This document shows positions 23,660 through 39,891 of a DNA stretch of 56,709 nucleotides, in pieces. This DNA is from Ignavibacteriaceae bacterium. GTDB taxonomy: Bacteria; Bacteroidota; Ignavibacteria; Ignavibacteriales; Ignavibacteriaceae. Positions within the stretch are counted from its first letter, which is position 1. Each line of letters opens with the position of its first letter. The stretch is from positions 1-56,709 of the forward strand of contig JBJKRP010000148.1 of assembly GCA_046704565.1 (NCBI GenBank), written 5' to 3'. Both the position numbers and the translations under genes were made by a program. The notes under the pieces were generated by a model that was given only the letters and a program-made list of their open reading frames with translations, was not told the DNA's origin and ran no database searches.

Positions 23660-23685
23660 AACGCACTGGGAATTTCTTTTTTTCA

Positions 23686-25032: not shown

Positions 25033-25724
25033 TTCAATTCTTTCCCAATTTATTAAAAGAATGTTAAGATTTTATAGCCGGCTTTTATGATTGGAAATGT
25101 ACTAATAGAACCGGCAGCAAAGATTTTTTCGTAGTACACTTTAAAATAAAGGGTCATCACGATTTTAATTAAACGGTATTCATCTTTCTGAGCCCAGGAA
25201 TGCATTTTCGAAAAGTGAATTTCGGATGAAAAATATTTCATTATATCTAACGAGTTCCCAGCCATTAAAAGCCCCTTTCAAACCTTCCAAAATTATCTGA
25301 AGTCATTAATACAAACTGCGAGCCAATTCATTCTTAGATATCTCTCGCTCCCATAGTTATTCTTAAATAGGTAGGCAGTTTTTCTGCAATTTCAAGACAT
25401 AAGGGTTAGAATTTGTGGGAATATAGTTAATAGGTTTACAATTTTTTCTGATTACCAAAGAATTGTTTGCCTCTGGCAATTATTGGCAAACATTCAATAT
25501 CCCGATTATAAAATCAAAAAATTCTTGAACACAAGGAATCTACAAGCCACAAACTGCCGGTTTTGTTTCTCACTAACAGCAAACTTTTTTTACCTGTATT
25601 GCCACGGATGAGAAAGATTAATTCACTTATCCATACAAAAAATTTTAATTTCATTAAAAAGTGAGAGAGGCTAATTGAAAGTCTCTATAGAAATAAATCA
25701 GCCGTGTAATCGCATTAAAAACTA

Positions 25725-26264
25725 TTAGCTGCAGAAATATTTGTAGGCTTCAACATGATCGGCGCAACTTCGGCAGTAACCGTTTCCTTTTATATCCACT
25801 TCTTCAATACCGGGAGAAGAATGCATTACACAATCCCAATCAGTACAATGACGAAGACCGAAGTTATGACCGAGTTCATGCAGTATTTCTTTCATCGTTC
25901 TTTCCAAAAGCAGATTGTTGTTAGATTTACCGGAATAAAATTCTTCGTGCAGCCTGCATACAGAGACTATAGAATGCTTTCCGTCGAGCTGAGCCTCGCC
26001 GAAAACAAATGTAAGCACGGGGACAAAAATATCTACGTCGGTTATTAAAATTATTTTGCCGTCTACGTTATTCGTTAGCTCCATTGCCCTGGCAATTACG
26101 CCGGTAGAATAGTATTGCCCCCTTTCTTTAGAAAGGAAATTTTCAAGCTCCAGGTTCAATTCTAATAATTGCACCTGAGAGGTAAACATTTTAGATAGAT
26201 TAACTAAAATGTTTTTGAGCAGCCAGGCGTTCGAAAATCTTACCGGAACAATAAAGATGTTCAT
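25725..26264 (-). CDS. Archaemetzincin-type zinc metalloprotease (peptidase M54-like)
   Basis: HELGHNFGLRHCTDWDCVMH...CRSC matches HExxHxxGxxxCxxxxCxM...CxxC. The start codon overlaps the upstream regulator's stop by 1 nt (TGATG). Confidence 0.7.
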   Translation of the reverse strand: MNIFIVPVRFSNAWLLKNILVNLSKMFTSQVQLLELNLELENFLSKERGQYYSTGVIARAMELTNNVDGKIILITDVDIFVPVLTFVFGEAQLDGKHSIVSVCRLHEEFYSGKSNNNLLLERTMKEILHELGHNFGLRHCTDWDCVMHSSPGIEEVDIKGNGYCRSCADHVEAYKYFCS

Positions 26265-27619
26265 CAGTCGGCATTTTTTTGAAGGTTATATTTATTGATT
26301 TTATTATAGAGAGTAACACGGTCAATTTCCAACACCTGAGCGCTGCGCGAAATGTTCCAATTATTTTCGTTCAGTATTTTGTTGATGTATCTCTTTTCCA
26401 TAGCAGCAAGGCTTTTGCACTCCTCATCAAAGTATAAGTTGTTTAACGAAACATGGAACGGCAAATCTTCAACAAGGATAGAGTCCGTCTTTCCAACGAC
26501 CATTGCTCTCTCAACAGCATTTTCAAGCTCGCGAACATTGCCCCGCCAATCATAATTAATTAAGAAATCCATAGCCTCCTTTGAAACACCTTTTACCGAC
26601 TTGTTCATCATTAATGAAAATTTATTGATAAAGAAATTTACCAGCAGCGGTATGTCATCTCGCCTTTCGCGCAGCGGAGGTATAATAATAGAAAAAACAT
26701 TCAGCCGGTAATATAGGTCTTCCCTAAACTTTCCTGCTTTCACGAGCTCTTCAAGAGGTTCGTTGGTCGCAATAATAACTCTGAAGTCGCTTTTAATAAG
26801 TTCGTTGCCGCCTACCCGGTTAAATTGCTTTGTTTCTATCACACGCAGCAGCTCTATCTGCATTTTGATTGAGATAGAACCGATCTCATCAAGAAAAATA
26901 GTCCCGCCGTCTGCAAGCTCAAACTTGCCTTTGCGCCTGAACTGCGCACCCGTAAATGCGCCCTTCTCATGACCGAACAGCTCGCTCTCAAGAATTGTTT
27001 CTGCTAAAGCCCCACAGTTAACCGGGATTATCGGAAAATATTTTCTCTTACTGTTAATGTGGATTGCCTTTGCTACAAGCTCTTTACCGGTTCCACTCTC
27101 GCCTCTTATCATTACAGTAGTGTCTGTCGGCGCAACAGTTTGAATAAGATCATAAATTTTCTTCATCTGGTAGCTCTCGCCGATCAAATTGTCCGGTCTG
27201 ATGATCTCGTCGATGCTTTCCTTCAAGTGAATATTTTCAATCTTCAGCGCTCTCTGCTCAAGAGCCTTTTTTACCAGGTGAGCAAGCTCGTCCGGGTCGA
27301 CCGGCTTGGTAACATAATCATAGGCGCCGTTTTTAAGAGCAGCTATTGCAGTCGGAACGGATGCGAAAGCGGTAATAAGAATTATCACCGAGTCTTTATC
27401 GATTGATTTAATCCTGTTCAATAGTTCAATACCGCTCATCCCGGGCATTTTCATGTCAACCAGGAGAAGATCAAATTTAGTCTCTTCATATTTCTGCAGA
27501 GCTATTTCTCCATCCCCGGCAGTATCAACATCGTATCCTTCTTCTTCGAACCAGTGGAAGAGAGATTCTCTTACGATCTTTTCATCATCCACAATTAATA
27601 TTTTTTCCTTTTTATCCAT
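26264..27619 (-). CDS. Sigma-54-dependent response regulator (NtrC family)
   Basis: REC domain, GESGTGKE, an intact ELFGHEKGAFTGAQ, GNVRELEN, and HTH ISRSAQVLEIDRVTLYNKI. Confidence 0.9.
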   Translation of the reverse strand: MDKKEKILIVDDEKIVRESLFHWFEEEGYDVDTAGDGEIALQKYEETKFDLLLVDMKMPGMSGIELLNRIKSIDKDSVIILITAFASVPTAIAALKNGAYDYVTKPVDPDELAHLVKKALEQRALKIENIHLKESIDEIIRPDNLIGESYQMKKIYDLIQTVAPTDTTVMIRGESGTGKELVAKAIHINSKRKYFPIIPVNCGALAETILESELFGHEKGAFTGAQFRRKGKFELADGGTIFLDEIGSISIKMQIELLRVIETKQFNRVGGNELIKSDFRVIIATNEPLEELVKAGKFREDLYYRLNVFSIIIPPLRERRDDIPLLVNFFINKFSLMMNKSVKGVSKEAMDFLINYDWRGNVRELENAVERAMVVGKTDSILVEDLPFHVSLNNLYFDEECKSLAAMEKRYINKILNENNWNISRSAQVLEIDRVTLYNKINKYNLQKNAD

Positions 27620-27627
27620 TTAATTAC

Positions 27628-29220
27628 CTAAGAAATATTCTCGTTTGCAGGCAAGATCAATCTGAATGTCGTTCCTTTAAGCGAAGTCTTTTCAACCTCT
27701 ATTGAGCCGTTGTGGTTTGTAACAATTCCGTAAACTACCGCCAGCCCAAGACCGGTTCCCTTTGAAGCTTCCTTAGTGGAATAGAACGGCTCGAAAATAT
27801 GCGGAAGGTCTTTGTTCGAAATGCCTGTCCCCTCGTCAATTATCCTGATAACCGCAGCATTATTTTCCCAGGCAAGTCGAACAACTATCTTACCTCCTTG
27901 CGGCATTGCTTCAATCGCATTAATTAGCAGGGACATTAAAGCCTGTTGAACTTTCTGTGCGCTGCAGTTAATCTCAATTGTCTCAACAGGATATTCCTTC
28001 TCAATTGCAACGTGATAGATTTCAAGATGGTGCTGTATTACCGTTATGCTCTTGTCTATTATCCTGGTAAGATTCTCCCTTGAAAACTCATCTCTTTCTT
28101 CATGAGAGAACAGCAGCAGGTCTTTTACTATTTTCCCGCAGCGCGAGGATTCGCCTGAAATCAGCTCAAGATATTCTATTAATCTCGAATACTCCGAATC
28201 TCTCTGCATCGATTGAAGCTTCCTGGTAATCAGCTTGCTGTAAGTCAAAATACCTTCCAGCGGATTGTTAAGCTCGTGTGCAACTGTTGCTGACAGCTTT
28301 CCTAGCGATGCAAGCTTTTCAATCTGATTTACCTGGTTATAAATATTTTTTAGCTCTTCCGTCTTTTCATTCACCTTATCATTTAAGGTCTCGGACCAAT
28401 TTTTAATTTCCTTGTATGCATCATCAAGTTTTACAGACATATCATTAAATCTATGCGCAAGCTGTCCGAGTTCATTTTGGGTATCGAGATCAATTTTATA
28501 TGAAAGATTCCCCTTGCTGATTTCTTCAATCCCTTTGGTAAATTTTTTAATCGGTCTATTGACAAGTACAGTAATGAATAGTCCGCAGAAGAAAGAAATT
28601 ACAAGGGTAATCAATAATGCATTTAGAATAATTTCCCTGGTATTCTTCGCTATAATCGCATCAAGCTTGTCCAGCCCTACCACAACATCAAGTACACCAA
28701 GTATTTGAACATTGGGTGAATGCGCATGGCAGGCGGCATTGTAGCAGTCAGGCTCATTCTGGATCGGATTAATTAGACCGAGCACTCTTTTGTTTTCAGG
28801 ATTCCTGTAAATACGGATTTTGTTTTGATTGTTTAAGCTGTTTAAAGGCACATTACTATTGTGGCAAACAATGCATGCCTCGGCTGACATGTCTACCTTT
28901 TTCATTATTTCTGCAGTATCAGTCGAGAATATTATCATCCCCTGCTTATTGTAAATTCTGATATTATTAACACCCATCTCGGTTCCGAGTGTCTTAATAA
29001 TTTCATGTACGTCTTCACGGCGGTTCAGGAGCATGCTGTAACGCGTCGACTTCTTAATCAAGTCGCTGATATTGTATGCACTTTCAAGACGTGATTCGGT
29101 TAAATATCCGTCAAGATTCCTCACGATAAAATATGTGTACGCGGCAAGAATGCTGAAGAGTATCAGAGAGATGGAAACTATAAGTCTTACACTTAATTTA
29201 TTTATCAACTTAGTTGTCAT
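27628..29220 (-). CDS. Sensor histidine kinase with periplasmic c-type heme-binding motifs, HAMP domain
   Basis: TM1, then a periplasmic domain with CIVCH (CxxCH) and CYNAACH (Cx4CH), then TM2 and a HAMP domain. Kinase motifs are H-box VAHELNNPL, N-box LLINAIEA, DEGTGI and GTGLGLA. Confidence 0.85.
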   Translation of the reverse strand: MTTKLINKLSVRLIVSISLILFSILAAYTYFIVRNLDGYLTESRLESAYNISDLIKKSTRYSMLLNRREDVHEIIKTLGTEMGVNNIRIYNKQGMIIFSTDTAEIMKKVDMSAEACIVCHNSNVPLNSLNNQNKIRIYRNPENKRVLGLINPIQNEPDCYNAACHAHSPNVQILGVLDVVVGLDKLDAIIAKNTREIILNALLITLVISFFCGLFITVLVNRPIKKFTKGIEEISKGNLSYKIDLDTQNELGQLAHRFNDMSVKLDDAYKEIKNWSETLNDKVNEKTEELKNIYNQVNQIEKLASLGKLSATVAHELNNPLEGILTYSKLITRKLQSMQRDSEYSRLIEYLELISGESSRCGKIVKDLLLFSHEERDEFSRENLTRIIDKSITVIQHHLEIYHVAIEKEYPVETIEINCSAQKVQQALMSLLINAIEAMPQGGKIVVRLAWENNAAVIRIIDEGTGISNKDLPHIFEPFYSTKEASKGTGLGLAVVYGIVTNHNGSIEVEKTSLKGTTFRLILPANENIS

Positions 29221-29318
29221 AAAAGCCCTATTCCCTTGCCGTAAAATTAGGAAGAACTTTTTCTACTTCCAACTTTATGACGATCAGACCTAAAAGCACA
29301 AAGATTAAGCAAAGTCTT

Positions 29319-30044
29319 TTAGCTGATTAGAGCTTGAAGTATGCCGACGTATTTTTCCCGCCCAACAAGTTGATGTAAATATTTAACTTGATCGCCTCCG
29401 TCAAGCATAGTAAGCCCGACTTCCGGATAGTTTGATTTAATCTCTTCGACAATCCCAAATGATTTTTTCTGTAGCACCTGCCATTCGCTATGTTCTATCC
29501 TCCCGGCAGAAACTTCCTGCTCAATAGCACCGATTATAGCTATCCATTTTGACTTTGCAAGATCATCGGCTGGATTATTAACCTTATCGTAGATGGAAAA
29601 GTTCATCGGTGCGGTTAAGGAGCTTGTTCCCCACTCACCGAAGAACTGAACGACGGGCTGCCCGCTTAAGATGCTTCTGCTTTGACTAAAATCCATAATT
29701 ATTCCGACATGATCGAGGAATGAAATGAAGAGAGGATTAACCCCGAGATAATAAGTATTTGGCAAAACCTGTTTGATAATAAAACAATGCTTTAAGTAAA
29801 TAAATTTTTCATCATACTTAATTGATTTCAGTCTTCTTTCAACTAAGTTGACGGCGCTCAGGATGTTATTTGTCTGCATCTCATTCTCGCCGTAGTTTCT
29901 CATTACTTTATCGAACCGGCAATTTTCACAGTCAAACTTTTTATCGCACAGCTTGTATTCAATAACATTAGACGCCATCCATATGCACTTCAGCAAGCCG
30001 TAAGAGTTATCGGAATAAAAATTATCTTCGTTCATTTTACTCAC
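29319..30044 (-). CDS. Cys-rich N-terminal domain fused to a GcvH-like (lipoyl-fold) domain, no lipoyl lysine
   Basis: N-terminal C-x12-C-x5-C-x2-C motif (CIWMASNVIEYKLCDKKFDCENC). The C-terminal half aligns by eye to GcvH (LGVNPLF..., SGQPVVQFFGEWGTSSLTAPMNF, KWIAII), with Trp at the lipoyl-Lys position. Confidence 0.5.
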   Translation of the reverse strand: MSKMNEDNFYSDNSYGLLKCIWMASNVIEYKLCDKKFDCENCRFDKVMRNYGENEMQTNNILSAVNLVERRLKSIKYDEKFIYLKHCFIIKQVLPNTYYLGVNPLFISFLDHVGIIMDFSQSRSILSGQPVVQFFGEWGTSSLTAPMNFSIYDKVNNPADDLAKSKWIAIIGAIEQEVSAGRIEHSEWQVLQKKSFGIVEEIKSNYPEVGLTMLDGGDQVKYLHQLVGREKYVGILQALIS

Positions 30045-30210
30045 TTAAAATTAATCGTTTAGATTTTGCCTTACTATTTCTTTTTTGTCTTTGAAAGAAG
30101 AAAGCCCCCATTAAGATCTCAAGATATATTTGGCATCAATTATTGCAGAAGATATAAAAGCATTGCTACGGAAATTACAGCCATTATTTTTCTTTGATTC
30201 GAAAATTATT

Positions 30211-30483
30211 TTATTCGCTTTGATTTTGTTTCTTATTAGTCTCAGCAGTTTTTTCATCTGTAATATCAATCCCGGAGCTTTTATTCACCTCTTTGTTTTC
30301 TTTCGATTTACCGCCGTCATACATTGTGGCTCCTACGAGACTAATGATAGGCTCTGTATTACTTGTTGAAATTTTTTCCATACGCTTACCCTTTGACTTT
30401 AACGCCATCGGATTAATTATAAGTTGAACGAAAAGGTCAACTGCAGCAAAGACAAGGATTAGAACTAATATAAACGTAAGCAT
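30211..30483 (-). CDS. Small single-pass membrane protein, hypothetical
   Basis: The ATG follows AAGGAA. The N-terminal TM helix is MLTFILVLILVFAAVDLFVQLI, followed by a charged tail. It competes with an antisense ORF at 30130-30369. Confidence 0.35.
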   Translation of the reverse strand: MLTFILVLILVFAAVDLFVQLIINPMALKSKGKRMEKISTSNTEPIISLVGATMYDGGKSKENKEVNKSSGIDITDEKTAETNKKQNQSE

Positions 30484-31086
30484 GACATATTCCTTATTTC
30501 TATCTGTTACTTTATCCTAAAAAATCAATTAATATACCATAAAGAAAATATGATTTCCCCTTTTCGTAAGAGTATGACAGGTAATGAGTTATAGAGTTTC
30601 CGGAGAATATCTAAATAGAATGGAATTAAAAAAATGTAGGCATATTCAACAGTCTTATGTTGAATTTTCCGTCAAACAACGGAGTCTTTCATTACTGCGC
30701 TTGCATCTTTTTCCTGCAGAATTATAATCGTAGGCGAGAAAAAATTAATTGCGCATTAACAACTATTTTTATTTAGCAATTGAAATAAGTATACCAGACG
30801 AAAAAAAGGATCAGAGAATTTCTTTACAAATCCCAAAATAAATTCTCAAATACAACAATAGAAACCGAGATGTGTTGCCATTGGTGAGAAGCCTTTTATT
30901 ACATTAAACAGAAAAAATTTTTCAAAGGTTTTATTCCATTTAAATTTTAATGTTTATAAAAATTAAGAAATAGAAATATTGCAGGTAACAGTTCTTGGCA
31001 TACTTTTATATAAACTTCAAAGGTCGAATTAACTAAATAATAGGACATAAGTAAAAAATTAATTTTTCACGAAGAAAGAGGGTAAG

Positions 31087-31986
31087 GTGGAAAAACAGAA
31101 TAGAAGAGAATTCTTTAAGACTTCAGCATTATTAGGCACTGCAATCACGGGTTTATTTTCAGGTACGACAAAGGCAGCCCCGAAAAATATTTTATCCGAA
31201 GATAGAATGGGAGTTCTTGTCGATACAACCGCGTGCATAGGCTGCAGAAGCTGTGAATGGGCATGCAAGAATGCACATGGAATTGAAACACCGCCTCTTG
31301 AAAAATACAGCGACAGATCGGTATTCAAAAAAATGCGCCGCCCTGATGTAAACGCTCTTACTGTTGTTAATGAATATTCAAATCCTCAGAACGCTGAACT
31401 GCCAACAGATATAAAAGTACAATGCATGCACTGCGATCATCCCGCATGTGTATCCGCATGTATTGTCGGGGCGTTTTCAAAGCAAGAGAACGGTTCGGTT
31501 ATCTGGGATACGAAACGCTGTATCGGATGCCGCTATTGCATGGTAGCCTGCCCTTTCCAGGTGCCTTCATTTGAATATGACAAAGCAATAAATCCGGAAA
31601 TTAAGAAATGCGATTTTTGTTTTGAAAGAACCAGAGCCGGCAAGCTTCCCGCGTGCGTTGAAATTTGTCCTGTTGAAGCGCTGACCTACGGACCGCGCAA
31701 CGACTTAGTTAAGATCGCTCGTGAAAGGATTAAAAGAAACCCGGAAAAATATTTCAATTACATATACGGCGAATATGAAGTCGGCGGAACTGCATGGATG
31801 TATATAGGGAACGAGGATCTAAGAAAGAAAGCATTTCCAAAGCTCGGGGACAAGCCCGCACCCGGCGTATCCGAAGCAATCCAGCACGGAATCTTTGCTT
31901 ATTTTGTTCCGCCGGTTTCGCTTTACGCCCTTCTCGGCGGCATAATGTGGATAACTAAAAACAGAAAAAATTCAGAGGAGGAATAA
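31087..31986 (+). CDS. Tat-exported 4x[4Fe-4S] ferredoxin-type subunit (HybA/NrfC/DsrO-like) with C-terminal TM anchor
   Basis: GTG start after AGAGGGTAAG and a twin-arginine signal NRREFFK. The four Cys clusters are CIGCRSCEWAC, CMHCDHPACVSAC, CIGCRYCMVAC and CDFC...CVEIC. A C-terminal hydrophobic helix is present. Confidence 0.85.
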   Translation: MEKQNRREFFKTSALLGTAITGLFSGTTKAAPKNILSEDRMGVLVDTTACIGCRSCEWACKNAHGIETPPLEKYSDRSVFKKMRRPDVNALTVVNEYSNPQNAELPTDIKVQCMHCDHPACVSACIVGAFSKQENGSVIWDTKRCIGCRYCMVACPFQVPSFEYDKAINPEIKKCDFCFERTRAGKLPACVEICPVEALTYGPRNDLVKIARERIKRNPEKYFNYIYGEYEVGGTAWMYIGNEDLRKKAFPKLGDKPAPGVSEAIQHGIFAYFVPPVSLYALLGGIMWITKNRKNSEEE

Positions 31987-31989
31987 ATC

Positions 31990-33234
31990 ATGGTATCTTA
32001 TATGAAACCGTCTCCGATTACTAAAAAATTTCTTACGCCCGGAGTTTTTGTTTTAATTCTTCTTGCGGTAAACGGACTTTGTTTCCTGTTTGCCCGATTG
32101 TTTTTTGGAATTGGGGCAGTCACGAATCTTAATAACCAATATCCGTGGGGAATCTGGATCGGAGTTGATGTTGCGGCAGGTGTTGCTTTAGCAGCAGGCG
32201 GTTTTACTACAGCAGCGCTCGGTCATGTTATGCACCGTACACACTATCACGATATTGTAAGACCTGCATTATTAACAGCAATGCTCGGATACACATTTGT
32301 CGCATTGAGTGTCTCAATTGATATTGGAAGATGGTATTACATCTGGCATCCTCTAATAATGTGGAATGGAACTTCTGCGCTCTTTGAGGTAGGAATTTGC
32401 GTGATGATTTATCTAACCGTTTTGTATATCGAATTTCTTCCAATAGTCACCGAAAGGTTTATCAATCATGTAAACTTTAAAGGCGCAATTTCCTTCTTAA
32501 ACAAACCTGTTGAAAAACTCCTCGTGGTTTTAGATAGAGGATTATCAAAAGTAATGTTTGTATTTATTATCGCCGGTGTTGTACTTTCAAGTCTGCATCA
32601 ATCCTCTCTCGGAACATTAATGGTTATTGCAGGACCGAAAATGCATCCGTTATGGCAGACACCCATTTTGCCTCTGCTATTTTTATTGTCGGCAATCTCT
32701 GTTGGGTTTCCAATGGTAATTTTTGAATCGATGATCGCCGCACGTTCATTCGGTTTAAAGCCTGAAATGGAAGTATTGTCCAGGTTGGGTTCAATAGTAG
32801 CGCCTATTCTTGGAGTATATCTTGCTTTCAAGTTAGGCGATATGTTTATCAGGGAAACGTTTGTTTATCTTAGAAGTTTCAATACGCAAAGTGTAATGTT
32901 CACAATTGAAGTTTTGTTCGGGATAATAATCCCGCTTAGGATGTTTCTATCCAAAGCCGTTTTAAAATCACCCCTTTGGTTGTTTGTCGCTTCGTGCCTG
33001 GTAATTTTCGGAGTTCTGATAAATAGAATAAATAACTTTGTTACGGCTTATACGCCTCCTTATTCATTCGGCTCTTACTTCCCCTCGTTTGGAGAAATTT
33101 CAGTGACTGTCGGATTCATTTCTCTACTCGTCTTATTGTACCGGGTTATTGTCTTTAACTTCCCGGTAATCAGCGTCTTCGACAGGTATCGTACCCCAAG
33201 AACCAAATACACAATTAGAGGCAGCGAGCTATGA
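31990..33234 (+). CDS. NrfD/HybB/PsrC-like polytopic quinone-interacting membrane subunit
   Basis: 414 aa with about 10 TM helices. It starts 3 nt after the FeS subunit's stop, and its stop overlaps the cytochrome start as ATGA. Confidence 0.8.
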   Translation: MVSYMKPSPITKKFLTPGVFVLILLAVNGLCFLFARLFFGIGAVTNLNNQYPWGIWIGVDVAAGVALAAGGFTTAALGHVMHRTHYHDIVRPALLTAMLGYTFVALSVSIDIGRWYYIWHPLIMWNGTSALFEVGICVMIYLTVLYIEFLPIVTERFINHVNFKGAISFLNKPVEKLLVVLDRGLSKVMFVFIIAGVVLSSLHQSSLGTLMVIAGPKMHPLWQTPILPLLFLLSAISVGFPMVIFESMIAARSFGLKPEMEVLSRLGSIVAPILGVYLAFKLGDMFIRETFVYLRSFNTQSVMFTIEVLFGIIIPLRMFLSKAVLKSPLWLFVASCLVIFGVLINRINNFVTAYTPPYSFGSYFPSFGEISVTVGFISLLVLLYRVIVFNFPVISVFDRYRTPRTKYTIRGSEL

Positions 33235-34394
33235 GAAAAATAATATTCATAAACGCTCTATTATTTACAGCTGTTCTTATTGGGCAAACAAAGCCTCCCA
33301 AAGGTCATGAACTCTTAACAAAGCTGACATGCAAAACATGCCATGGATGCGAAGTCCCGACGAAGCAAGACCCTTGTCTCACTCCATGTCCAAGAAATCA
33401 GATGGTGACAGTTCATCAATCAGCAGACAAGACTGTCAATGTAGTCAAGCTTGATGAGCTGTCAAAAAAATATTTACATGTTGTTTTTCCGCATAGAGCT
33501 CATGCTCAAATGTCGGAAATGTCGGGCGGCTGTATGACATGCCATCATTACAACACGAGCGGACCAATACAGCCATGTAAGAATTGCCATCAAGCCCAAA
33601 GGAACAGAGCCGATATCAGCAAGCCGGACTTAGAGGCAGCATACCACCGGCAATGTATTAACTGCCATCGCGAGTGGAGCCACGAGAATAGCTGCGTTTC
33701 ATGCCATGCATTAAGGACAAAAGATAGCGCCGTACATGTTACTACGGCTAAAAATTCTGAATCTATAAATCATCCTAAGATAGAAGAACCGGCAAAAGTT
33801 ATTTATAAGACAACCAGCAGTAAAGGCAAGCTTGTTACATTCTATCATGATGAACATTTTAATTTATTCGGCATAAGCTGCATCAAGTGCCATCAGCAGG
33901 AAAACTGTACAGAGTGTCATGACAAACAAAAAACCTCAATGCCTCAAAGGCAGGCAAATGTTCCTATAGAAATTCACAAGCCGGCGGCCCAGCATCATAA
34001 GCCTTGCTTTTCTTGCCATAGCGAGGATAAGTGCACTGTATGCCATTCAAACAAGCCTGAAGGTCCCTTTGACCATTCGGAAAGAGCAGGTTGGGCTTTG
34101 AATAAATTTCATAAAGTGCTGGCTTGTTCGCAGTGTCATGGTACTTCAGGTAGATTCACCAGGCTTGATAACAAGTGCGAGAGCTGCCACAACAATTTTG
34201 CTGCGGGTAAGTTCGATCATAGTATAACCGGTCTTAAGCTGGATGAAAATCATAAGGACGCCGACTGCGTTGATTGTCATCTTGAAAGGAATTTTTCGAA
34301 TCCTCCGTCATGCAAAAATTGCCATGATGATAAAAGTTATCCTAAAAATAAGCCCGGCAAGGAAGTTAAGGTTTCGTTAAAAAAGGAAAAATAA
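33231..34394 (+). CDS. Periplasmic multiheme cytochrome c (13 CxxCH motifs)
   Basis: A signal peptide followed by 13 CxxCH motifs, counted directly: CKTCH, CMTCH, CKNCH, CINCH, CVSCH, CIKCH, CTECH, CFSCH, CTVCH, CSQCH, CESCH, CVDCH, CKNCH. The spacing is cytochrome c3/c7-like, for example FPHRAH...CMTCHH. Confidence 0.9.
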   Translation: MRKIIFINALLFTAVLIGQTKPPKGHELLTKLTCKTCHGCEVPTKQDPCLTPCPRNQMVTVHQSADKTVNVVKLDELSKKYLHVVFPHRAHAQMSEMSGGCMTCHHYNTSGPIQPCKNCHQAQRNRADISKPDLEAAYHRQCINCHREWSHENSCVSCHALRTKDSAVHVTTAKNSESINHPKIEEPAKVIYKTTSSKGKLVTFYHDEHFNLFGISCIKCHQQENCTECHDKQKTSMPQRQANVPIEIHKPAAQHHKPCFSCHSEDKCTVCHSNKPEGPFDHSERAGWALNKFHKVLACSQCHGTSGRFTRLDNKCESCHNNFAAGKFDHSITGLKLDENHKDADCVDCHLERNFSNPPSCKNCHDDKSYPKNKPGKEVKVSLKKEK

Positions 34395-34449
34395 AAGTAA
34401 CAAAGTTGATTTAATTCTCGTAGATTTCTGTTGGTAATTAAAGAAATGT

Positions 34450-36333
34450 TTGCGCTTTGGGAAAATTGAAAACATGTTCAGGAAAATCGGTTTCAAGTTA
34501 ATATTAGCTGTCGGGGTTACGGCGCTTATTACAATAGGTATTTTTGCTTATTTCAATATACAGTCCCATACCAGCAGTTTACTTGCAGAAGTCGAACGGA
34601 GCGCAAACCAGCTCAGTGAAACTGTAAAGCATAGTACGCGCTACGACATGCTTCTGAACCAGCGTGACCGTATTCATAAAATTATTAATACTATTGGCGA
34701 GCAGCCAGGGATTAGAGATGTGAGAGTCCTTAATAAAATGGGAGAGATTATTTATTCTTCTCACACTGAAGATATCGGCAAGATGGTTGATAAGAAAACC
34801 GAAAGCTGTTATAAATGCCATGCCGCCGACAAGCCTCTTGAAAGACTTCCGATTAGAGACAGGACAAGAATTTTTAGAATAAGCCCCGACTCATCCAGGA
34901 TTATGGGAATCATAAGCCCCATTTATAACGAGCCTTCTTGCTGGCAAGCCGACTGCCATGCCCACTCTAAAAGCCAGACGGTACTCGGCGTTCTTGATGT
35001 TACAATATCTTTAAGCGATGTTGATGCTCAAATCAAAAAAGGTGAAATCGAAATTGTAATCTTCGCGATTTCAGGTGTGATTGCTTTAAGCTTCATCGTT
35101 GGATTTTTTGTACGAAGATGGGTTGACAAGCCTGTAAAAGAATTATTGAATGCTACCAACCAGGTTGGAGTCGGGAACCTTAATTATACTATTAAGGACA
35201 GACGCGATGACGAACTTGGAATGCTTGCCCGTTCATTCAACAATATGACAAAGAAACTTTCTGAAGCCCGCATGCAGCTTTTCCAATCGGATAAAATGGC
35301 TTCGCTCGGAAGACTTGCCGCCGGAGTTGCACACGAAATAAATAATCCTCTGACCGGAGTCCTGACTTACAGCAGCTTTCTTTTAAAACGTACTCAAAAC
35401 AATCCCGAAATGCAGGAAGACTTGAAGGTGATTGTTCGGGAGACCAAAAGAAGCCGTGAAATTGTAAAAAGCCTTCTTGATTTTGCGCGTCAATCAATTC
35501 CTAAAAAGAATGATGCAAACATAAACGATATTATTCTTCACGCTGTTAGCGTTGTGGAAAACCAGCTTGCTATCGATCATATTAAATTAATAAAAAATCT
35601 TGACCCCGATCTTCCAAACACAACGATAGACTCCAACCAGATACAACAGGTTATAATCAATCTTCTGGTAAATGCGCATGATGCAACCGGAAAGGAAGGC
35701 GGTACAATTACTATTTCTTCCCTTAAGATAAGCCTCTCGCCATACGGGATTACTCATATTAAAAAGGCTCTATGTCCTAAACGCCATGATATGATGGATA
35801 ATGAAGTAAAGATCGAAGGTATGGCTTCAATAAAAGTAAAAGTACGCTCGAACGGCAGCGAAGGTTTTATTAATTTAGATCCTGTTTATGGAAAGACCAG
35901 GCACCAGTACGGAATTGAGCCCGATATCAAAAAAGGTATTGCAATGATGTGCCCGCAGTGCAGTCAATCCTTAATTATCGAGGGAAAGAAATGCCCGAAG
36001 TGTGAGGCACCGGTTTATAGTTTCGAGATCCCGTCTCAAGGTTTTTTTGAAGGCTGTACAAGGAAAGGCTGTGGATGGCAGAAATGGGATTACGTTGATG
36101 TCGGCGGTAAGAAAGAATATATTGAAGTAAAAATATCCGATACCGGGTGTGGAATTGCAAAAGAAGATTTATCAAAAATATTTGAGCCTTTTTTTAGTAC
36201 AAAGGGACAAAAAGGAACCGGACTTGGTTTGGCGGTTATTTGGGGAATTATCGATAACCACAACGGGACTATTGGTGTTGAAAGCGAATTAAATAAAGGA
36301 ACGGAATTTACCATAAGGCTGCCGCTTATATAG
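34450..36333 (+). CDS. Sensor histidine kinase with periplasmic heme-c motifs, HAMP, and a Cys-rich insertion in the ATPase domain
   Basis: Paralog of the 27628-29220 kinase, with CYKCH and CWQADCH in the periplasmic domain. Kinase motifs are H-box VAHEINNPL, N-box NLLVNAHDA, and G-boxes DTGCGI and GTGLGLA. About 130 extra residues lie between the N and G1 boxes. The ATG at 34474 (MFRKIG...) is a plausible alternative to the TTG start at 34450. Confidence 0.85.
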   Translation: MRFGKIENMFRKIGFKLILAVGVTALITIGIFAYFNIQSHTSSLLAEVERSANQLSETVKHSTRYDMLLNQRDRIHKIINTIGEQPGIRDVRVLNKMGEIIYSSHTEDIGKMVDKKTESCYKCHAADKPLERLPIRDRTRIFRISPDSSRIMGIISPIYNEPSCWQADCHAHSKSQTVLGVLDVTISLSDVDAQIKKGEIEIVIFAISGVIALSFIVGFFVRRWVDKPVKELLNATNQVGVGNLNYTIKDRRDDELGMLARSFNNMTKKLSEARMQLFQSDKMASLGRLAAGVAHEINNPLTGVLTYSSFLLKRTQNNPEMQEDLKVIVRETKRSREIVKSLLDFARQSIPKKNDANINDIILHAVSVVENQLAIDHIKLIKNLDPDLPNTTIDSNQIQQVIINLLVNAHDATGKEGGTITISSLKISLSPYGITHIKKALCPKRHDMMDNEVKIEGMASIKVKVRSNGSEGFINLDPVYGKTRHQYGIEPDIKKGIAMMCPQCSQSLIIEGKKCPKCEAPVYSFEIPSQGFFEGCTRKGCGWQKWDYVDVGGKKEYIEVKISDTGCGIAKEDLSKIFEPFFSTKGQKGTGLGLAVIWGIIDNHNGTIGVESELNKGTEFTIRLPLI

Positions 36334-36342
36334 GCGAATGGA

Positions 36343-37149
36343 ATGAATAAACAATTCGACATATTGATTATAGACGACGAGCAAGTTATTACCGAAGCAG
36401 TAAACAAAATCTGTTCGGCGGAAGGATACAGGGTCGACTCGAGCCTTGATGCCGCAGATGCAATCATTAAACTTGAAACGAATTTTTACCGCTTGATATT
36501 ATGCGATATAATGCTTCCGGGGATGGACGGATTCCAGTTTCTCGATGAGGTCTCTAAGAAAAAAACTATTTCGCCCGTTATAATGACTACTGGGTTTTCG
36601 ACAGTAGAGAATGCCGTTAAATCATTATACAACGGGGCAATAGATTTTATACCGAAACCGTTTACAGCCGATGAATTACTTTCATCCGTCTCACGCGGCT
36701 TAAAATATTTGGAAATTCAAAAAAAATTATTCGAGACGGGAAGCCGCAGGAATGATGAATCTATAATCTATGTTCCATGTCCGGCTAAGTATTACAGACT
36801 TGGTTATTCAAGCTGGGTTAACTCAGATACCTCAGGCTCTGCTGTTGTAGGAGTTACGGATTTATTCCTTAAGACCATCGCTTCAATAAACGGAATTGAC
36901 TTGCTAAAGGTCGACGGCGAAATAGTGCAGGGAAATTCATGTGCTCAATTAAGCTCAAAGGAATATTATTCCCATGCAGTGTTAAGCCCGGTCAGCGGGA
37001 GAATAATAGAAAGGAACGAAAGCCTGATTGAAGAAATTAACACCATCGAAAAAGACCCGTACTTTAACGGATGGCTTTACAGAATAATACCATCCGATTG
37101 GCAGTACGAAATACAAAACTTAATACCGTGCAGTTCGGATAGAATGTAA
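36343..37149 (+). CDS. Response-regulator receiver fused to a GcvH-like domain
   Basis: REC domain: IIDDE, LCDIMLPGMDG, MTTG, PKPF. The C-terminal stretch VVGVTDLFLKTIASINGIDLLKVDGEIVQGNSCAQLSS...SPVSGRIIERNESL...DPYFNGWLYRI aligns to the GcvH core VGITxxAQ...PVSGxV...PYxxGW. Confidence 0.7.
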   Translation: MNKQFDILIIDDEQVITEAVNKICSAEGYRVDSSLDAADAIIKLETNFYRLILCDIMLPGMDGFQFLDEVSKKKTISPVIMTTGFSTVENAVKSLYNGAIDFIPKPFTADELLSSVSRGLKYLEIQKKLFETGSRRNDESIIYVPCPAKYYRLGYSSWVNSDTSGSAVVGVTDLFLKTIASINGIDLLKVDGEIVQGNSCAQLSSKEYYSHAVLSPVSGRIIERNESLIEEINTIEKDPYFNGWLYRIIPSDWQYEIQNLIPCSSDRM

Positions 37150-37198
37150 ATAGAATTATAATAAACGAGAGGAAGAAAAACTCTAAGGAGAATACAAT

Positions 37199-38356
37199 AT
37201 GCCACTTTTAATTATTGCAGTTATATTATTTGTTATCGCCGATGTATTGATAAGATACTCGGGTAAAAGGATACAGGAAAAGAAGCTACGCAAAGACCGC
37301 GAAGCCGCTTTAAACGTAAGTTTGAATCTTGATTTTACAAGAGAGGCAAAGTCCTTAAAACGCGTTGAAGTTGAAAGTCCTAAAGCTAAAATTTTATGTG
37401 TTGATGACGAGCCGGTAATACTCGACAGCTTCCGGAAAATTCTTGTGCTTGAAGGATATTCGGTTGATACGGTTGAAAACGGAAAGGAAGCAGTAGGGCT
37501 GGTTCAAACACATCATTATGATTTCGTTTTCACCGACTTAAAGATGCCGGAAATGGACGGAGTTGAGGTTACCAAGTCCGTAAAGCACATAAGACCCGAT
37601 ATTGATGTTGTAATCATAACCGGGTACGCTACTGTTGAAACCGCCGTTGAGTGTATGAAGTTCGGTGCAATGGACTATGTACAGAAGCCTTTCACCGAGG
37701 ATGAACTGCTTGACTTCGTTAAGAAAATTTTAATTAAACGGCAGGATAGAATTCAGAAACAGTTGAAACCGCAGGTTCACATCACTCACTTCGCCGAATC
37801 TAAACATTTTATGACTTACGAGTTCGCTATTCCTGGAGGAGTTTTCATCTCCGCAGGACACTGCTGGGCAAGCATGGAACAGGACGGCGCCGCAAAAGTA
37901 GGTATCGATGACTTTGCCAAAAAGCTCATTGGTAAAATTACCGGTATCGAGCTTCCCAACCTGGGAATGGTTGTTAAAGCCGGACAGCCGTTGTTTACAA
38001 TTAAACAGGATGACCGCAGTGTCGCATTCAATTCGCCGTTGAGCGGCAAGGTAATTAAAATTAATACTATCCTGCCGACAAATCTTGAAGTCCTTGATGT
38101 TACCTCATATAATACCAACTGGATTTGTGTAATTGATACTGAAGATTTAGATAGTGAACTAAAAACCCTGAATATCGGCAAGAGCGCAGTCACTTTCTAT
38201 CAGGATGAAATAGACAGGTTCATTCAGCTTAGGAAAAATATTCCGGTTAAGGATAGTTCGCAGACCCAGAGGAACAACGAACTTTATATAGGAGAATTTG
38301 AAAAGCTTGATAATGCCGACTGGGACAAGATGGTCACAGAGTTATTCAAAAAATAA
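37199..38356 (+). CDS. Membrane-anchored receiver domain fused to a GcvH-like domain
   Basis: N-terminal TM helix MPLLIIAVILFVIADVLI, then a REC domain (CVDDE, FTDLKMPEMDG, ITGY, QKPF). The C-terminal stretch KVGIDDFAKKLIGKITGIELPNLGMVVKAGQPLFTI...SPLSGKVIKIN is GcvH-like. Confidence 0.7.
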   Translation: MPLLIIAVILFVIADVLIRYSGKRIQEKKLRKDREAALNVSLNLDFTREAKSLKRVEVESPKAKILCVDDEPVILDSFRKILVLEGYSVDTVENGKEAVGLVQTHHYDFVFTDLKMPEMDGVEVTKSVKHIRPDIDVVIITGYATVETAVECMKFGAMDYVQKPFTEDELLDFVKKILIKRQDRIQKQLKPQVHITHFAESKHFMTYEFAIPGGVFISAGHCWASMEQDGAAKVGIDDFAKKLIGKITGIELPNLGMVVKAGQPLFTIKQDDRSVAFNSPLSGKVIKINTILPTNLEVLDVTSYNTNWICVIDTEDLDSELKTLNIGKSAVTFYQDEIDRFIQLRKNIPVKDSSQTQRNNELYIGEFEKLDNADWDKMVTELFKK

Positions 38357-38379
38357 TTTTATTTTTTATTGAATATGTT

Positions 38380-38433
38380 GCTTCGATGAGCTGAAGGCAT
38401 GTTATACGGGCTTGTCGAAGCGCAATTTTTTTT
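38380..38433 (+). terminator. Intrinsic terminator after the kinase/REC-GcvH operon
   Basis: GCTTCGA (38380-38386) pairs with TCGAAGC (38415-38421), and AGC/GCT extends the stem. A T8 run follows at 38426-38433. Confidence 0.5.
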
Positions 38434-38465
38434 ACTTTAATGAAAACGCTGCCGGATTGTTAACT

Positions 38466-38993
38466 ATGGTAACTTCATTCAAAGATAGAATTGAAATTCT
38501 TAAGGGCGACATAACTAAATTAAATGTTGATGCCATAGTTAATGCTGCAAACTCATCGCTGCTTGGCGGTGGAGGCGTGGATGGCGCGATCCATCGCGCT
38601 GCAGGTCCCGGGCTTTTAGACTATTGCAGAAAGCTGAATGGCTGTCCAACCGGTGAAGCTAAAATAACTCCCGGGTTTAATCTACACGCAAGGTTTGTTA
38701 TTCACACTGTTGGACCTGTTTGGCGGGGAGGTAATTACGATGAAGCAAACCTTTTGTCGAACTGTTACAAGAATTCACTCCGTCTTGCCGTTGAAAATAA
38801 CCTGGTGAGTATAGCTTTCCCGGCTATCAGTACTGGCATTTACGGCTACCCACTCGAATATGCGGCTAAGACCGCCCTAAAAACTGTCAAAGAATTTTTA
38901 TCATCAGACAACTCTATCGAAAAAGTAATTTTTGTCTGCTTCAGCCACTTTGACTTTGAAATATATAAGGAACTCTCTGCAAAGCTGGTTTAA
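38466..38993 (+). CDS. Macro-domain protein (O-acetyl-ADP-ribose deacetylase, YmdB-like)
   Basis: [24 protein letters not shown] and [13 protein letters not shown] prefer the ATG at 38466 because the TTG start at 38412 would lie inside the upstream terminator hairpin. Confidence 0.85.
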
Positions 38994-39168
38994 GCTTAAC
39001 ATAAACTATCCAGTAGTTTCATCCTCCCAATTTTTGTTTAATAAAATATTCAGCCTGTCTATAAATATTAACAAGCTATATGATGGCAAAGTGAATTTCG
39101 CTTTCTAAGAAGACTGTCTTGTGGCATTCAAATTGAGTTGAGCACTATGATTTTCGGAAGAAAGCGAG

Positions 39169-39891
39169 ATGTTTAAAATAATTATTTCATCTTTAGTCCT
39201 TTTATTTATAATTGGCTGCGCGCCTGTGCCGGTTTACAGACTAAATTCTATAGAAAAAAACAAAGACTTTTATAACGGTATGGAGACAGTAATGAGAAAT
39301 GATTCAACTGCCAGAATAATGTTGAGATTCGATAATCAGTCACAATATAATTATGCATTTTATCTTTCGGTTACGAATAATACTTCGGGAGACATAGTGT
39401 TTGACCCCAAAAATATCTATTCTGAAAAGGCTGAAGGCAGCGAAGAACAGTCAGATGAAAAATTTTTCGCGATAAATCCTGAAGAGAAATTAAGAAACAT
39501 CGACCACGATATAAATGGAACCATTGCTCAGAAAAAGACTGATGACGGAATAAATCTTTTCATTGGCTTTTTAGATTTAGCCTCTACGGTAGCAACAATC
39601 GGAAAGGAAAAGTCTGACGAAGAAATTCAGAAGCAACAGGAAACAAGAGAAGATTTCTACCAGACAGTGAATAATGAAAATATAGATTTCAATAATAAAA
39701 TGAATTCTCTAAAGGATGAAAAAGTATATTGGGAAGAAAGAGTTTTAAGAATTACTACACTCTATTCGGGGGACGAAATAGACGGAGAAGTTTTTCTTCC
39801 GATAATTCCCGGCGCAGATACAGTAAAAATTGTAGTACCGGTGGCTGGAAGAGAATACAATTTTCTATTCAAACAAACTTGTTCTGATTAA
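39169..39891 (+). CDS. Hypothetical lipoprotein
   Basis: Lipobox LLFIIGC after a hydrophobic signal sequence. No other motif. Confidence 0.5.
   Translation: MFKIIISSLVLLFIIGCAPVPVYRLNSIEKNKDFYNGMETVMRNDSTARIMLRFDNQSQYNYAFYLSVTNNTSGDIVFDPKNIYSEKAEGSEEQSDEKFFAINPEEKLRNIDHDINGTIAQKKTDDGINLFIGFLDLASTVATIGKEKSDEEIQKQQETREDFYQTVNNENIDFNNKMNSLKDEKVYWEERVLRITTLYSGDEIDGEVFLPIIPGADTVKIVVPVAGREYNFLFKQTCSD

Follow-up and report, generated by a model that had tools for sequence, protein, structure and literature searches.

How can a two-component system that carries no DNA-binding output act on the respiratory operon in which it is encoded? The question is raised by a locus in a contig of 56,709 nucleotides (JBJKRP010000148.1, positions 1 to 56,709, assembly GCA_046704565.1) from an Ignavibacteriaceae bacterium, the whole of which is called the window below. 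Between positions 25,725 and 38,356 two gene strings diverge from a shared intergenic region. On the plus strand, genes for an iron-sulfur (FeS) subunit, an NrfD-like membrane subunit and a 13-heme cytochrome c are followed by genes for a histidine kinase with heme-binding motifs (HK2) and for two proteins, RG1 and RG2, in which a receiver domain (REC) is joined to a GcvH-like (H-protein) domain. The minus strand encodes a small transmembrane (TM) protein (TM90), a cysteine-containing GcvH-like protein (Cys241), a second heme-motif kinase (HK1), the regulator NtrC1 and an archaemetzincin, beyond which lies a further NtrC-family gene, NtrC2. Two-component systems are nearly always read as transcription switches, and the H-protein fold is, to our knowledge, known only as a lipoyl carrier. 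Here, we describe HK2, RG1 and RG2 as a very widespread cassette (at least 518 genomic sites), whose two receiver proteins lack a DNA-binding domain and which stands in anaerobic electron-transfer operons, and we consider by what mechanism it may work.

The gene list and coordinates proposed in an initial annotation, made from the sequence alone, were reproduced gene for gene by an open reading frame (ORF) map combined with Pfam and NCBIfam profile scans, which also served to assign the protein families of the window. A scan for relatives of RG1 covering one genome per species matched at least 599 stretches, at least 518 of which were confirmed as encoding a relative. The best 80 of these at least 518 confirmed loci, taken with 10-kb flanks, constitute the synteny set, all members of which were mapped with the proteins of the window; denominators given below are the loci informative for the feature concerned. 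According to the record titles the loci belong to Ignavibacteria, Melioribacteraceae including the cultured Rosettibacter primus, Calditrichia, a KSB1 metagenome-assembled genome (MAG) and one Gemmatimonadota MAG. Homologues of RG1 combining REC and GCV_H are abundant in Ignavibacteria-type metagenomes, and the names under which databases hold them are generic only (“response regulator”, “CheY-like...” or “GcvH”).

Conservation of the neighbourhood in relatives had been set beforehand as a test of the proposed locus, and the order of the plus-strand genes proved to be kept in at least 55 loci from several phyla. RG2 directly follows RG1 in 74 of 75 loci, HK2 directly precedes it in 65 of 67, and the FeS and NrfD-like genes lie upstream in 58 of 59, accompanied by the large cytochrome gene in 55 of 59. 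Since this synteny extends across loci and phyla with RG1 identity falling to 50%, the six plus-strand genes, tightly packed in the window with gaps of -4 to 55 nt, are regarded as one conserved unit. The inspected one of the four loci lacking the large cytochrome (L020) encodes instead a small cytochrome with about five hemes and bears an extra RG2-like gene in front; two others (L058 and L080) display the order RG2-like, FeS, NrfD′ (a second NrfD-type protein, described below) and HK2, and in L074 those genes are divergent. The unit is split in a Melioribacteraceae MAG (L069, 5431-8016), where two unrelated genes, one for a protein of 205 aa and one for a secreted protein of 652 aa whose C-terminus is of the type IX secretion system type, stand between cytochrome and HK2. 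The view of the two gene strings as one conserved redox-signalling and respiratory unit is borne out by cross-phylum synteny, and the observation that HK2 has no DNA-binding partner in its own operon holds as well. The idea of duplicated kinase and regulator pairs stands in part: paralogues do exist, but the arrangement is not symmetric, the core being HK2, RG1 and RG2 and the HK1-NtrC1 pair an optional layer.

Both kinases carry, between two TM helices, one CXXCH and one CX4CH, the latter being a genuine heme-attachment variant in cytochromes c3; these motifs of the exported domain are invariant, and covalent heme is predicted from them. Residues C120/C123/H124, C164/C169/H170 and H172 do not vary among HK2 orthologues, 64 of 65 of which have a single CXXCH and a single CX4CH, and the extra histidine of the CHAH sequence could act as a distal heme ligand. 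The sensor regions of HK1 and HK2 matched no Pfam family at E <= 0.01, and a sequence search of the PDB returned no relative of the HK2 sensor. Nor do they belong to sCache_heme (DUF3365/Tll0287, PF11845), a family with a single CXXCH, since PF11845 gave no match and each sensor possesses two motifs. The second peculiarity of HK2 is an insert of about 120 residues (residues ~430-550) that separates N box from G1 box in the ATPase domain and in which eight conserved cysteines and histidines (C442, H446, C501, C504, C515, C518, C536 and C541) make up two zinc-ribbon-like sites; this insert occurs in all HK2 orthologues, including those encoded beside aprBA-qmo genes, whereas HK1 has none.

RG1 and RG2 score 62.2 and 61.3 bits against GCV_H (PF01597), with a cutoff of 22.2. 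RG1 is a response regulator with invariant receiver residues D11, D12, D55, T82/83 and K105, and RG2 conserves the corresponding DD, D, T and K motifs; both receivers are of NtrC type, with NtrX, AtoC and NtrC as their best NCBIfam matches and 36-42% identity to the receiver of NtrC1. In RG1 a long helix follows the receiver, Cys146 is invariant within the conserved YVPCPAKYYRLGYSSW segment, and the C-terminal CSSDR is invariant as well. RG2 begins with a TM helix (residues 1-19) followed by basic residues and conserves H221, W223 and C310. In the AlphaFold2 (AF2) model of RG1 the Cys146 and CSSDR segments are of low confidence, which fits a structure depending on a partner or cofactor; Foldseek matches of this model are mostly receiver domains and add no information on the output domain. 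The GcvH-like domains had been called non-lipoylatable in three copies, and alignments including E. coli GcvH confirm this: no conserved lysine occupies the lipoyl position (ESVK65A in E. coli) in RG1, RG2, Cys241 or the TM-GcvH proteins of relatives described below. Neither gcvT/gcvP nor a lipoate ligase gene was found within the locus or in the regions that flank the 80 related ones, which were annotated with the window's proteins, no genome-wide search having been made. Of the properties of a functional GcvH only the fold is therefore present, the lipoyl lysine and the association with gcv or ligase genes being absent.

The cassette extends well beyond this operon. An exhaustive HMMER search with the GcvH-like part of RG1 gave 108 representatives (50%-identity clusters) at E <= 1e-10; most measure about 250-275 aa and carry the domain in their C-terminal half, the REC-GcvH architecture. 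Such representatives reach down to ~27% identity, and the trio of HK2, RG1 and RG2 is kept down to ~33-40% identity of the GcvH part. Kinase, REC-GcvH and TM-REC-GcvH recur in two divergent loci (L085 and L090), the kinase of the former again having di-heme motifs and the zinc-ribbon insert. In a third (L087, 7118-18750) the trio adjoins a dissimilatory sulfur-metabolism operon, standing directly upstream of aprB, aprA, a gene for a CxxCxxCC protein and HdrA-like qmo-type genes; aprB and aprA both exceed the NCBIfam equivalog cutoffs, and no NtrC-type gene lies beside the trio. Because the same trio is found beside several redox gene sets, it is considered a portable cassette tied to anaerobic redox machinery. 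Other lineages fuse the domain to redox proteins: in L083 (2608-6858) a REC-GcvH-HdrC-like fusion comes after a REC-GcvH gene and is itself followed by genes for CCG (HdrB-like) and flavo-FeS proteins, with a Cache-type kinase adjoining, and an Anaerolineae locus (L088, 3234-7409) encodes a 1391-aa protein comprising three GcvH domains, a flavin adenine dinucleotide (FAD)-oxidase domain and an HdrD-like domain. The lipoyl lysine is absent from the GcvH-like domains in all these contexts. By the gene-fusion argument the GcvH-like domain would be physically related to FeS/Hdr-type proteins, and the cassette is probably a portable redox sensor that acts on respiratory complexes by protein contact.

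The respiratory genes themselves form a module of an already known kind, noted in Melioribacter roseus as the “NrfCD cluster”: a FeS subunit with a twin-arginine signal and a TM tail, an NrfD/HybB-like subunit and a multiheme cytochrome c encoded in this order. The best NCBIfam matches of the FeS subunit are HmcB (311.6 bits, cutoff 420) and HybA (233.4 bits, cutoff 263), those of the NrfD-like subunit the HybB type (350.7 bits, cutoff 450) and HmcC (259.1 bits, cutoff 550), all below the equivalog or family cutoffs, and the cytochrome scores 41.6 bits against HmcA (cutoff 400). The NrfD-like gene starts 3 nt past the FeS gene and overlaps the cytochrome gene by 4 nt; 13 CXXCH motifs are kept in 52 of 53 full-length cytochrome homologues. 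With these scores, 13 hemes and neither a NarI-like nor a CCG protein in the operon, the module is not an Hmc complex, and the scores together with the lack of hydrogenase genes among the neighbouring ORFs of the window separate it from the HybA/HybB pair of hydrogenase-2. Initially a comparison had been drawn with Geobacter cbcBA and with Nhc/Hmc-type complexes; the complex is neither of the Cbc-type bc kind nor a complete Hmc or Nhc one, but of the tail-anchored FeS/HybB-like/multiheme c type.

The divergent arm is less constant. In 25 of 54 loci HK1 and/or NtrC1 are encoded divergently from the FeS operon, and in 7 of the 54 (Melioribacteraceae, Calditrichia, KSB1) a PAS/sigma-54 activator is encoded instead upstream of FeS on the same strand; where an adjacent regulator is present it invariably belongs to the sigma-54 activators, being NtrC1 or a PAS-AAA+ protein. 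HK1 carries CIVCH at residue 116 and CYNAACH at 159, both preserved in 10 of 10 orthologues, and its sensor domain is 39% identical to that of HK2, the dimerization and histidine phosphotransfer (DHp) domains being similar as well. NtrC1 has the features of a sigma-54 enhancer-binding protein, and apart from its unclassified heme sensor the HK1-NtrC1 pair is an ordinary system of the NtrC type. In two loci the PAS/sigma-54 AAA+/helix-turn-helix (HTH) regulator (L040, 2884-4236; L063, 2828-4216) bears a cysteine cluster, CFEVLRSNRCESGCPF, within its PAS domain, suggestive of a cytoplasmic sensor, of redox or FeS type, in place of HK1-NtrC1. Another locus (L020, 2703-3362, minus strand) encodes a 219-aa NtrC1-like protein consisting of receiver and HTH_8 without AAA+, another route to a non-activating paralogue.

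Cys241 matched nothing in Pfam or NCBIfam, its PDB profile search gave chance-level matches only, and comparison of its family with that of RG1 by hhalign returned a probability of 1.7% (E 0.03). Its AF2 model, built with 22 homologues, reaches a predicted local distance difference test (pLDDT) value of ~90 over residues 60-200 and was matched by Foldseek to solved H-proteins (E 4e-6, target TM-score 0.74-0.78); because of this match the GcvH-fold assignment of Cys241 holds, as a model-based one. The GcvH-like and heme-motif assignments of the initial annotation were in this way upheld by profile, structure and conservation tests. Conserved cysteines C17, C30, C36 and C39 (numbering of the 238-aa form) constitute the Cys4 motif, whose segment is modelled at low confidence. 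The Cys-rich GcvH-like gene is divergent and linked to HK1-NtrC1 in 19 of 54 loci and lies downstream of RG2 in 5 more. HK1, devoid of the insert, travels with this Cys4-bearing protein, and HK2, which has the insert, travels with GcvH-like domains lacking Cys4; one may speculate from this pattern that zinc-ribbon-like element and GcvH-like domain cooperate. The loop motif VG(A/x)TM(Y/x)DGG is common to TM90, to the TM-GcvH protein of relatives (in L003, 3173-3841) and to the C-terminus of Cys241, in the model of which it is disordered, and looks like a common docking motif for some partner. TM90 itself has homologues in 6 relatives. In 16 of 54 loci the arm is longer and contains TM90 (sometimes), TM-GcvH, FeS′, NrfD′, Cys-GcvH, HK1 and NtrC1. 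The second module of relatives, exemplified by L003 (1196-3841, minus strand), comprises a 222-aa TM-GcvH, a FeS′ protein with a C-terminal tail and no Tat signal, and NrfD′, for which crude hydropathy and positive-inside analysis gave no clear inverted or normal orientation. It is absent from the window, where a spacer of 166 bp separates TM90 from Cys241 and blastx revealed no remnant of it; the closest relative, L003 (FeS 90% identical), has the long form; the larger two-module system is present in the window only in reduced shape.

The intergenic region between the two strings, announced as AT-rich and 600 bp long, measures 603 bp with ~29% GC. Upstream of FeS, where 56 loci were aligned, most share a conserved sigma-54-like 16-mer 45-100 nt ahead of the start codon (variants TGGCGTACTTTTTGCA, TGGCTTGCTTTTTGTC and TGGTACGATTTTGCAA). 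A strict regular expression, TGG[CT]...TTTT[GA][CT], detects it within 250 nt upstream in 27 of 56 loci as compared to 0.03 expected per 250 nt, and further variants are visible by eye; the motif is a putative sigma-54 promoter. Scanning for canonical TGGCAC-N5-TTGCW with up to 2-3 mismatches found nothing upstream of the FeS gene of the window and no window-wide enrichment. On the opposite side a YGGYAY-N5-TTGM motif (for example CGGCAYNNNNNTTGMC and TTGGCTCGTAGTTTGC) precedes the first gene of the divergent arm, be it TM90, TM-GcvH or Cys-GcvH, in 21 of 21 inspected loci, and sigma-54 control, as initially proposed, is backed by conserved -24/-12 motifs on both arms. Between the two promoters lies a perfect palindrome, unique in the window with 0.01 expected; relatives have it, or half-sites of it, at a corresponding place, and the full palindrome, when at most one mismatch is allowed, is ~10-fold denser there than in the rest of the loci. 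We infer that it is a binding site of NtrC1, and the layout is that expected for divergent promoters served by an enhancer-binding protein. Scans for sigma-70 promoters and terminators performed no better than on shuffled sequences, and Rfam detected no RNA element in 23600-39200. All features are collected in Table 1.

Table 1. Genes and regulatory motifs of the locus, with the evidence for each assignment
Feature	Position	Strand	Evidence or remark
NtrC2, lineage-specific NtrC1 paralogue without GAFTGA	23686..25032	-	AAA+ and HTH_8 kept
Sigma-54-like motif TGGCTCGCAGTTTGTA	25310..25325	-	2 mismatches (such hits not enriched window-wide); upstream of 70-aa ORF and NtrC2
Archaemetzincin-family metalloprotease, accessory	25725..26264	-	NF033823 158.9 bits, cutoff 145; HELGHNFGLRH; overlaps NtrC1 by 1 nt
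NtrC1, REC/sigma-54 AAA+/HTH_8 enhancer-binding protein	26264..27619	-	PF00158 232.7 bits, GAFTGA at residue 220
HK1, paralogous di-heme HAMP-HisKA-HATPase_c kinase without zinc-ribbon insert	27628..29220	-	Pfam
Cys241, GcvH-fold protein (model-based), N-terminal C-x12-C-x5-C-x2-C, C-terminal VGxTMxDGG	29319..30044	-	AF2 and Foldseek
TM90, small membrane protein, one N-terminal TM helix, VGATMYDGGK motif	30211..30483	-	Homologues in 6 relatives
Canonical-spacing sigma-54 -24/-12 promoter motif TGGTATATTAATTGAT	30524..30539	-	~40 nt upstream of TM90
Perfect palindrome TTCAACA-N6-TGTTGAA, TTCAACAGTCTTATGTTGAA	30645..30664		Between the two promoters; candidate NtrC1 enhancer site
Sigma-54-like promoter motif TGGCATACTTTTATAT	30996..31011	+	91 nt upstream of FeS start; good -24, atypical -12
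FeS subunit, four-cluster, Tat (twin-arginine translocation)-exported, C-tail-anchored, HybA/HmcB-like	31087..31986	+	Pfam Fer4_11 and related, NRREFFK signal, C-terminal TM helix
NrfD-family integral membrane, quinone-interacting subunit (HybB/HmcC-like)	31990..33234	+	Pfam NrfD E 3e-20
Periplasmic 13-heme cytochrome c	33231..34394	+	Exactly 13 CXXCH, Cytochrom_CIII and c7 Pfam matches, N-terminal signal sequence
HK2, HAMP-HisKA-HATPase_c kinase, periplasmic di-heme domain, Cys/His-rich zinc-ribbon-like insert	34450..36333	+	Pfam
RG1, soluble response regulator, REC and non-lipoylatable GcvH-like output	36343..37149	+	Pfam Response_reg, GCV_H E 6e-17
RG2, membrane-anchored REC and non-lipoylatable GcvH-like regulator	37199..38356	+	TM helix, Response_reg, GCV_H E 1e-16
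Macro-domain O-acetyl-ADP-ribose deacetylase, possible accessory	38412..38993	+	Pfam Macro E 2e-48; NF001664 239 bits, cutoff 200

Published data on M. roseus provide a view of expression. Its NrfCD cluster, made up of Mros1572, an FeS protein, and Mros1571, which is NrfD-like, was proposed to be a quinol:acceptor reductase feeding periplasmic multiheme cytochromes and possibly Fe(III) reduction (PMC3534657). In label-free proteomics (PMC5492636, Table S2) MROS_1567, MROS_1568, the kinase MROS_1569 and MROS_1571 were identified in 3/3 replicates from cells fermenting maltose anaerobically and in 0/3 from cells grown aerobically on acetate (adjusted p 0.005-0.008); for MROS_1572 the counts were 2/3 and 0/3. 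MROS_1567 and MROS_1568 are annotated as sigma-54-type regulators, an annotation string also borne by a 263-aa REC plus GCV_H orthologue (P0461), and the gene order fits RG2 and RG1. The expectation that the genes respond together to redox conditions is thus supported by their presence in anaerobic and absence from aerobic cells, but only if this orthology holds.

The explanation that on balance we find probable, if only slightly so, is a self-regulated anaerobic electron-transfer module with two tiers of control. The FeS, NrfD-like and 13-heme subunits would link the quinone pool to periplasmic electron carriers, their genes being co-transcribed with HK2, RG1 and RG2. In the upper tier, found in the window, HK1 would sense the periplasmic redox state via its hemes and phosphorylate NtrC1, which would activate both divergent sigma-54-type promoters, probably through the intergenic palindrome; NtrC2, with its near-identical receiver and HTH and without the sigma-54 contact loop, would compete with NtrC1 at the same sites. 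In the lower, universal tier HK2, made together with the complex, would read the redox state of periplasmic carriers, possibly of the 13-heme cytochrome itself (or else a heme ligand), and phosphorylate the soluble RG1 and the membrane-anchored RG2. Their GcvH-like domains may then work through contacts with other proteins at the membrane rather than on DNA or through lipoyl chemistry, with the cytoplasmic face of the NrfD-type subunit, cytoplasmic FeS/Hdr-like partners where present, the kinases and the activator as candidate targets, respiratory FeS/membrane complexes or the kinases being the likeliest among them, so that electron flow would be tuned after the complex is made. A bolder version, which we put forward tentatively and rather doubt, sees in REC-GcvH proteins a new class of response regulators whose non-lipoylated H-protein fold, under the control of phosphorylation, would dock on respiratory membrane, FeS or Hdr-like complexes (or on the zinc-ribbon of their own kinase) and gate electron flow post-translationally, the trio being a portable “respiratory governor” in at least three systems: HybA/HybB/multiheme c, AprBA-Qmo and Hdr-like.

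Several points weigh against the two-tier explanation. Heme attachment with redox sensing, the phosphorylation partners, the NtrC1 site and the targets of the GcvH-like domains are all inferred in it, and protein-protein contact, phosphotransfer and heme attachment in particular rest on sequence-based reasoning. HK1/NtrC1 is missing within 10 kb in about half of the loci, so the upper tier cannot be called universal. The FeS subunit of the window is periplasmic and cannot contact a cytoplasmic GcvH-like domain, which leaves the cytoplasmic face of the NrfD-like subunit or another partner. The RG1 model is moderate in its GcvH part (pLDDT 55-84). The -12 element of the FeS arm is degenerate or one base closer than canonical, the motif was missed by the canonical scan, and the full palindrome, present in only 8 of 56 loci, is not universal. 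Finally, MROS_1567 and MROS_1568 are probable orthologues of RG2 and RG1 as judged by gene order and annotation string, not by sequence.

The same observations can be arranged differently. RG1 and RG2 might be phosphate sinks or connectors, the output of HK2 being transcriptional via NtrC1 (and NtrC2) and the REC-GcvH proteins shaping kinetics or sequestering the activator. The shared sensor type of the two kinases, with 39% identity, their similar DHp domains and the NtrC-type receivers of RG1 and RG2, as close as 36-42% to that of NtrC1, make cross-talk of this sort conceivable, and Rrf1 of Desulfovibrio vulgaris, a single-domain response regulator, is reported to affect hmc expression. Yet in about half of the loci, and beside aprBA-qmo, the trio has no NtrC-type gene within 10 kb, two differently localised and highly conserved outputs (Cys146, CSSDR, TM anchor) exceed what a sink needs, and REC-GcvH/HdrC-like fusions point to redox enzymes as partners; we regard this alternative as unlikely. 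Equally unlikely in our estimate is that HK1 and HK2 are sensors of gases or ligands (nitric oxide (NO), O2, CO, sulfide) and the operon a stress or detoxification response. Covalently heme-bound extracytoplasmic sCache_heme domains fused to signalling modules did behave as NO sensors (PMC12889525), and the M. roseus cluster is absent in aerobic cells, but the present sensors do not match DUF3365/sCache_heme, their two hemes with the extra invariant histidine of CHAH suggest bis-histidine hemes of electron-transfer type, and they are always encoded beside multiheme or FeS electron carriers.

Less probable still is the possibility that the GcvH-like domains are carrier or redox arms, in which cysteines (C146 and C263 of RG1, the Cys4 of Cys241) or some non-lipoate modification would carry sulfur, a thiol-disulfide or a metal cluster under gating by the receiver. 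Fusions to HdrC-like and HdrD/CCG-type proteins in other lineages and the low model confidence of the cysteine-containing segments of RG1 and Cys241, as expected of cofactor- or partner-dependent structure, agree with it, as does the service of LbpA to sHdr systems; against this, the lipoyl lysine is missing everywhere, the GcvH part of RG2 has one conserved cysteine only, and the window contains no cytoplasmic Hdr-like protein and its operon no cofactor loader. Chance juxtaposition of unrelated two-component systems with a respiratory operon, to which the variability of archaemetzincin, NtrC2 and Macro and the different flanking genes of different genomes might testify, deserves hardly any credence: it is contradicted by a six-gene order and a trio preserved as far as stated above.

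The variable genes need separate comment. The archaemetzincin is a genuine member of its family (peptidase M54), but apart from the window only one Calditrichia locus (L082) has it behind NtrC1, and its proposed membership in the system was dropped. The second NtrC paralogue likewise lost its place as a core component, being essentially specific to the window: its best-hit homologues are almost confined to it among the 80 loci, and the suggested signalling of HK2 in trans to NtrC2 found no comparative support. Apart from these two inclusions, and from overlooking the reduced shape of the window, the initial picture proved for the most part correct. NtrC2 is 61% identical to NtrC1 (67% in both REC and HTH) and has PDVERGV in place of GAFTGA, the sigma-54 contact loop thus being absent; it is probably a non-activating competitor or a decaying or repurposed copy. 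It lies beyond a gap of 692 bp on the archaemetzincin side, where a 70-aa ORF (25053-25265, minus strand) showed in blastx a weak, non-significant similarity to the start of TM-GcvH; a 16-mer near-identical to TGGCTCGCAGTTTGTA precedes a Cys-GcvH or TM-GcvH gene in L005, L006 and L007. Because of this motif and this similarity the NtrC2 unit looks like a decayed duplicate of a promoter/GcvH-like/kinase/NtrC unit. A Macro-domain gene begins 55 nt past RG2 and occupies the same position and strand in 18 of 82 loci, mostly of Ignavibacteriaceae. The sole functional link between GcvH-like proteins and macrodomains that we know of is the GcvH-L/SirTM operon of Firmicutes, from which the present locus departs in having Macro only, with no sirtuin or ligase in neighbouring ORFs and no lipoyl lysine.

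Further afield in the window, zinc-type alcohol/threonine-dehydrogenase-like and class I/II aminotransferase-fold genes (21344-23659, plus strand) possibly represent a glycine-making tdh/kbl-type pair, whose vicinity to GcvH-like genes looks coincidental since the flanks differ in relatives. Two multi-PAS histidine kinases (2709-4688, minus strand; 51496-53811, plus strand) and a stand-alone receiver (53792-54256, plus strand) were also noted, with a sensor type unrelated to HK1 and HK2.

If the outputs of the cassette do act on complexes, this would amount to direct kinase control of respiratory electron flow and to a new, cofactor-free role for the H-protein fold. The locus also defines a new di-heme periplasmic sensor domain and opens a way into the regulation of a quinone-linked FeS/NrfD/13-heme module, for which a role in feeding metal reduction has been proposed in bacteria of Ignavibacteria type; cultured hosts, M. 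roseus and Rosettibacter, make these questions testable. Full-text literature yielded nothing relevant on REC-GcvH fusions, and the REC-GcvH output, the invariable pairing of its soluble and membrane-anchored forms with a di-heme zinc-ribbon kinase and their attachment to several respiratory systems appear to be undescribed.

Set against known systems, each part of the locus is familiar in some respect. LbpA proteins are lipoate-binding GcvH-like proteins which serve sHdr systems in sulfur oxidisers. With the H protein, LbpA and GcvH-L of the SirTM/macrodomain operon the GcvH-like domains share the barrel-sandwich hybrid fold (Pfam GCV_H), with LbpA in addition the tie to Hdr-like or respiratory FeS proteins, and with the GcvH-L operon a frequently adjoining Macro-domain gene; they differ in that lipoyl lysine, lipoate ligase, sirtuin and gcvT/gcvP are lacking and that the domain is a receiver output or membrane-anchored. 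HK1-NtrC1 resembles NtrB/NtrC systems such as ZraSR and AtoSC in combining a HAMP-HisKA kinase, a REC-AAA+(GAFTGA)-HTH_8 activator and divergent promoters with -24/-12 motifs, but has an unclassified di-heme periplasmic sensor and a co-encoded GcvH-like protein. Geobacter BccR with cbcBA is a case of sigma-54 two-component control of respiratory genes; compared here by description only, CbcBA is a b/c-type complex, whereas that of the window is FeS/NrfD/c. As in c-type heme sensors (the PAS-like GSU0582/GSU0935 and sCache_heme/DUF3365, PMC12889525), a periplasmic loop with covalent heme motifs lies between two TM helices and is linked to the transmitter by HAMP, but two motifs (CXXCH and CX4CH-x-H) replace one and neither Pfam nor PDB offers a sequence match.

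The respiratory part has two close counterparts. The Hmc complex of D. vulgaris supplies the best NCBIfam matches in its HmcB- and HmcC-like subunits, contains a large multiheme periplasmic cytochrome too and has at the 3' end of its operon Rrf1, a response regulator without DNA-binding domain reported to affect hmc expression. HmcD/E/F homologues are nevertheless absent here, the cytochrome has 13 hemes instead of 16 and matches HmcA only weakly and locally, and a regulator of Rrf2 type is lacking. Rrf1 had been entertained as a REC-GcvH protein as well, an idea dropped since the literature treats it as a single-domain CheY-like receiver. The other counterpart is the three-gene module composed of a tail-anchored Tat FeS protein, a HybB-like quinol oxidase and a periplasmic multiheme cytochrome c (bioRxiv 10.1101/2023.11.02.564894): in both, a four-cluster ferredoxin with Tat signal and C-terminal TM tail is followed by a cofactor-less HybB/NrfD-like protein and a multiheme cytochrome, without a catalytic molybdo- or hydrogenase subunit. 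That cytochrome is, however, an octaheme one as compared to the 13 hemes found here, and while no conserved flanking genes were found for that module, the present one is invariably followed by a kinase and two REC-GcvH genes.

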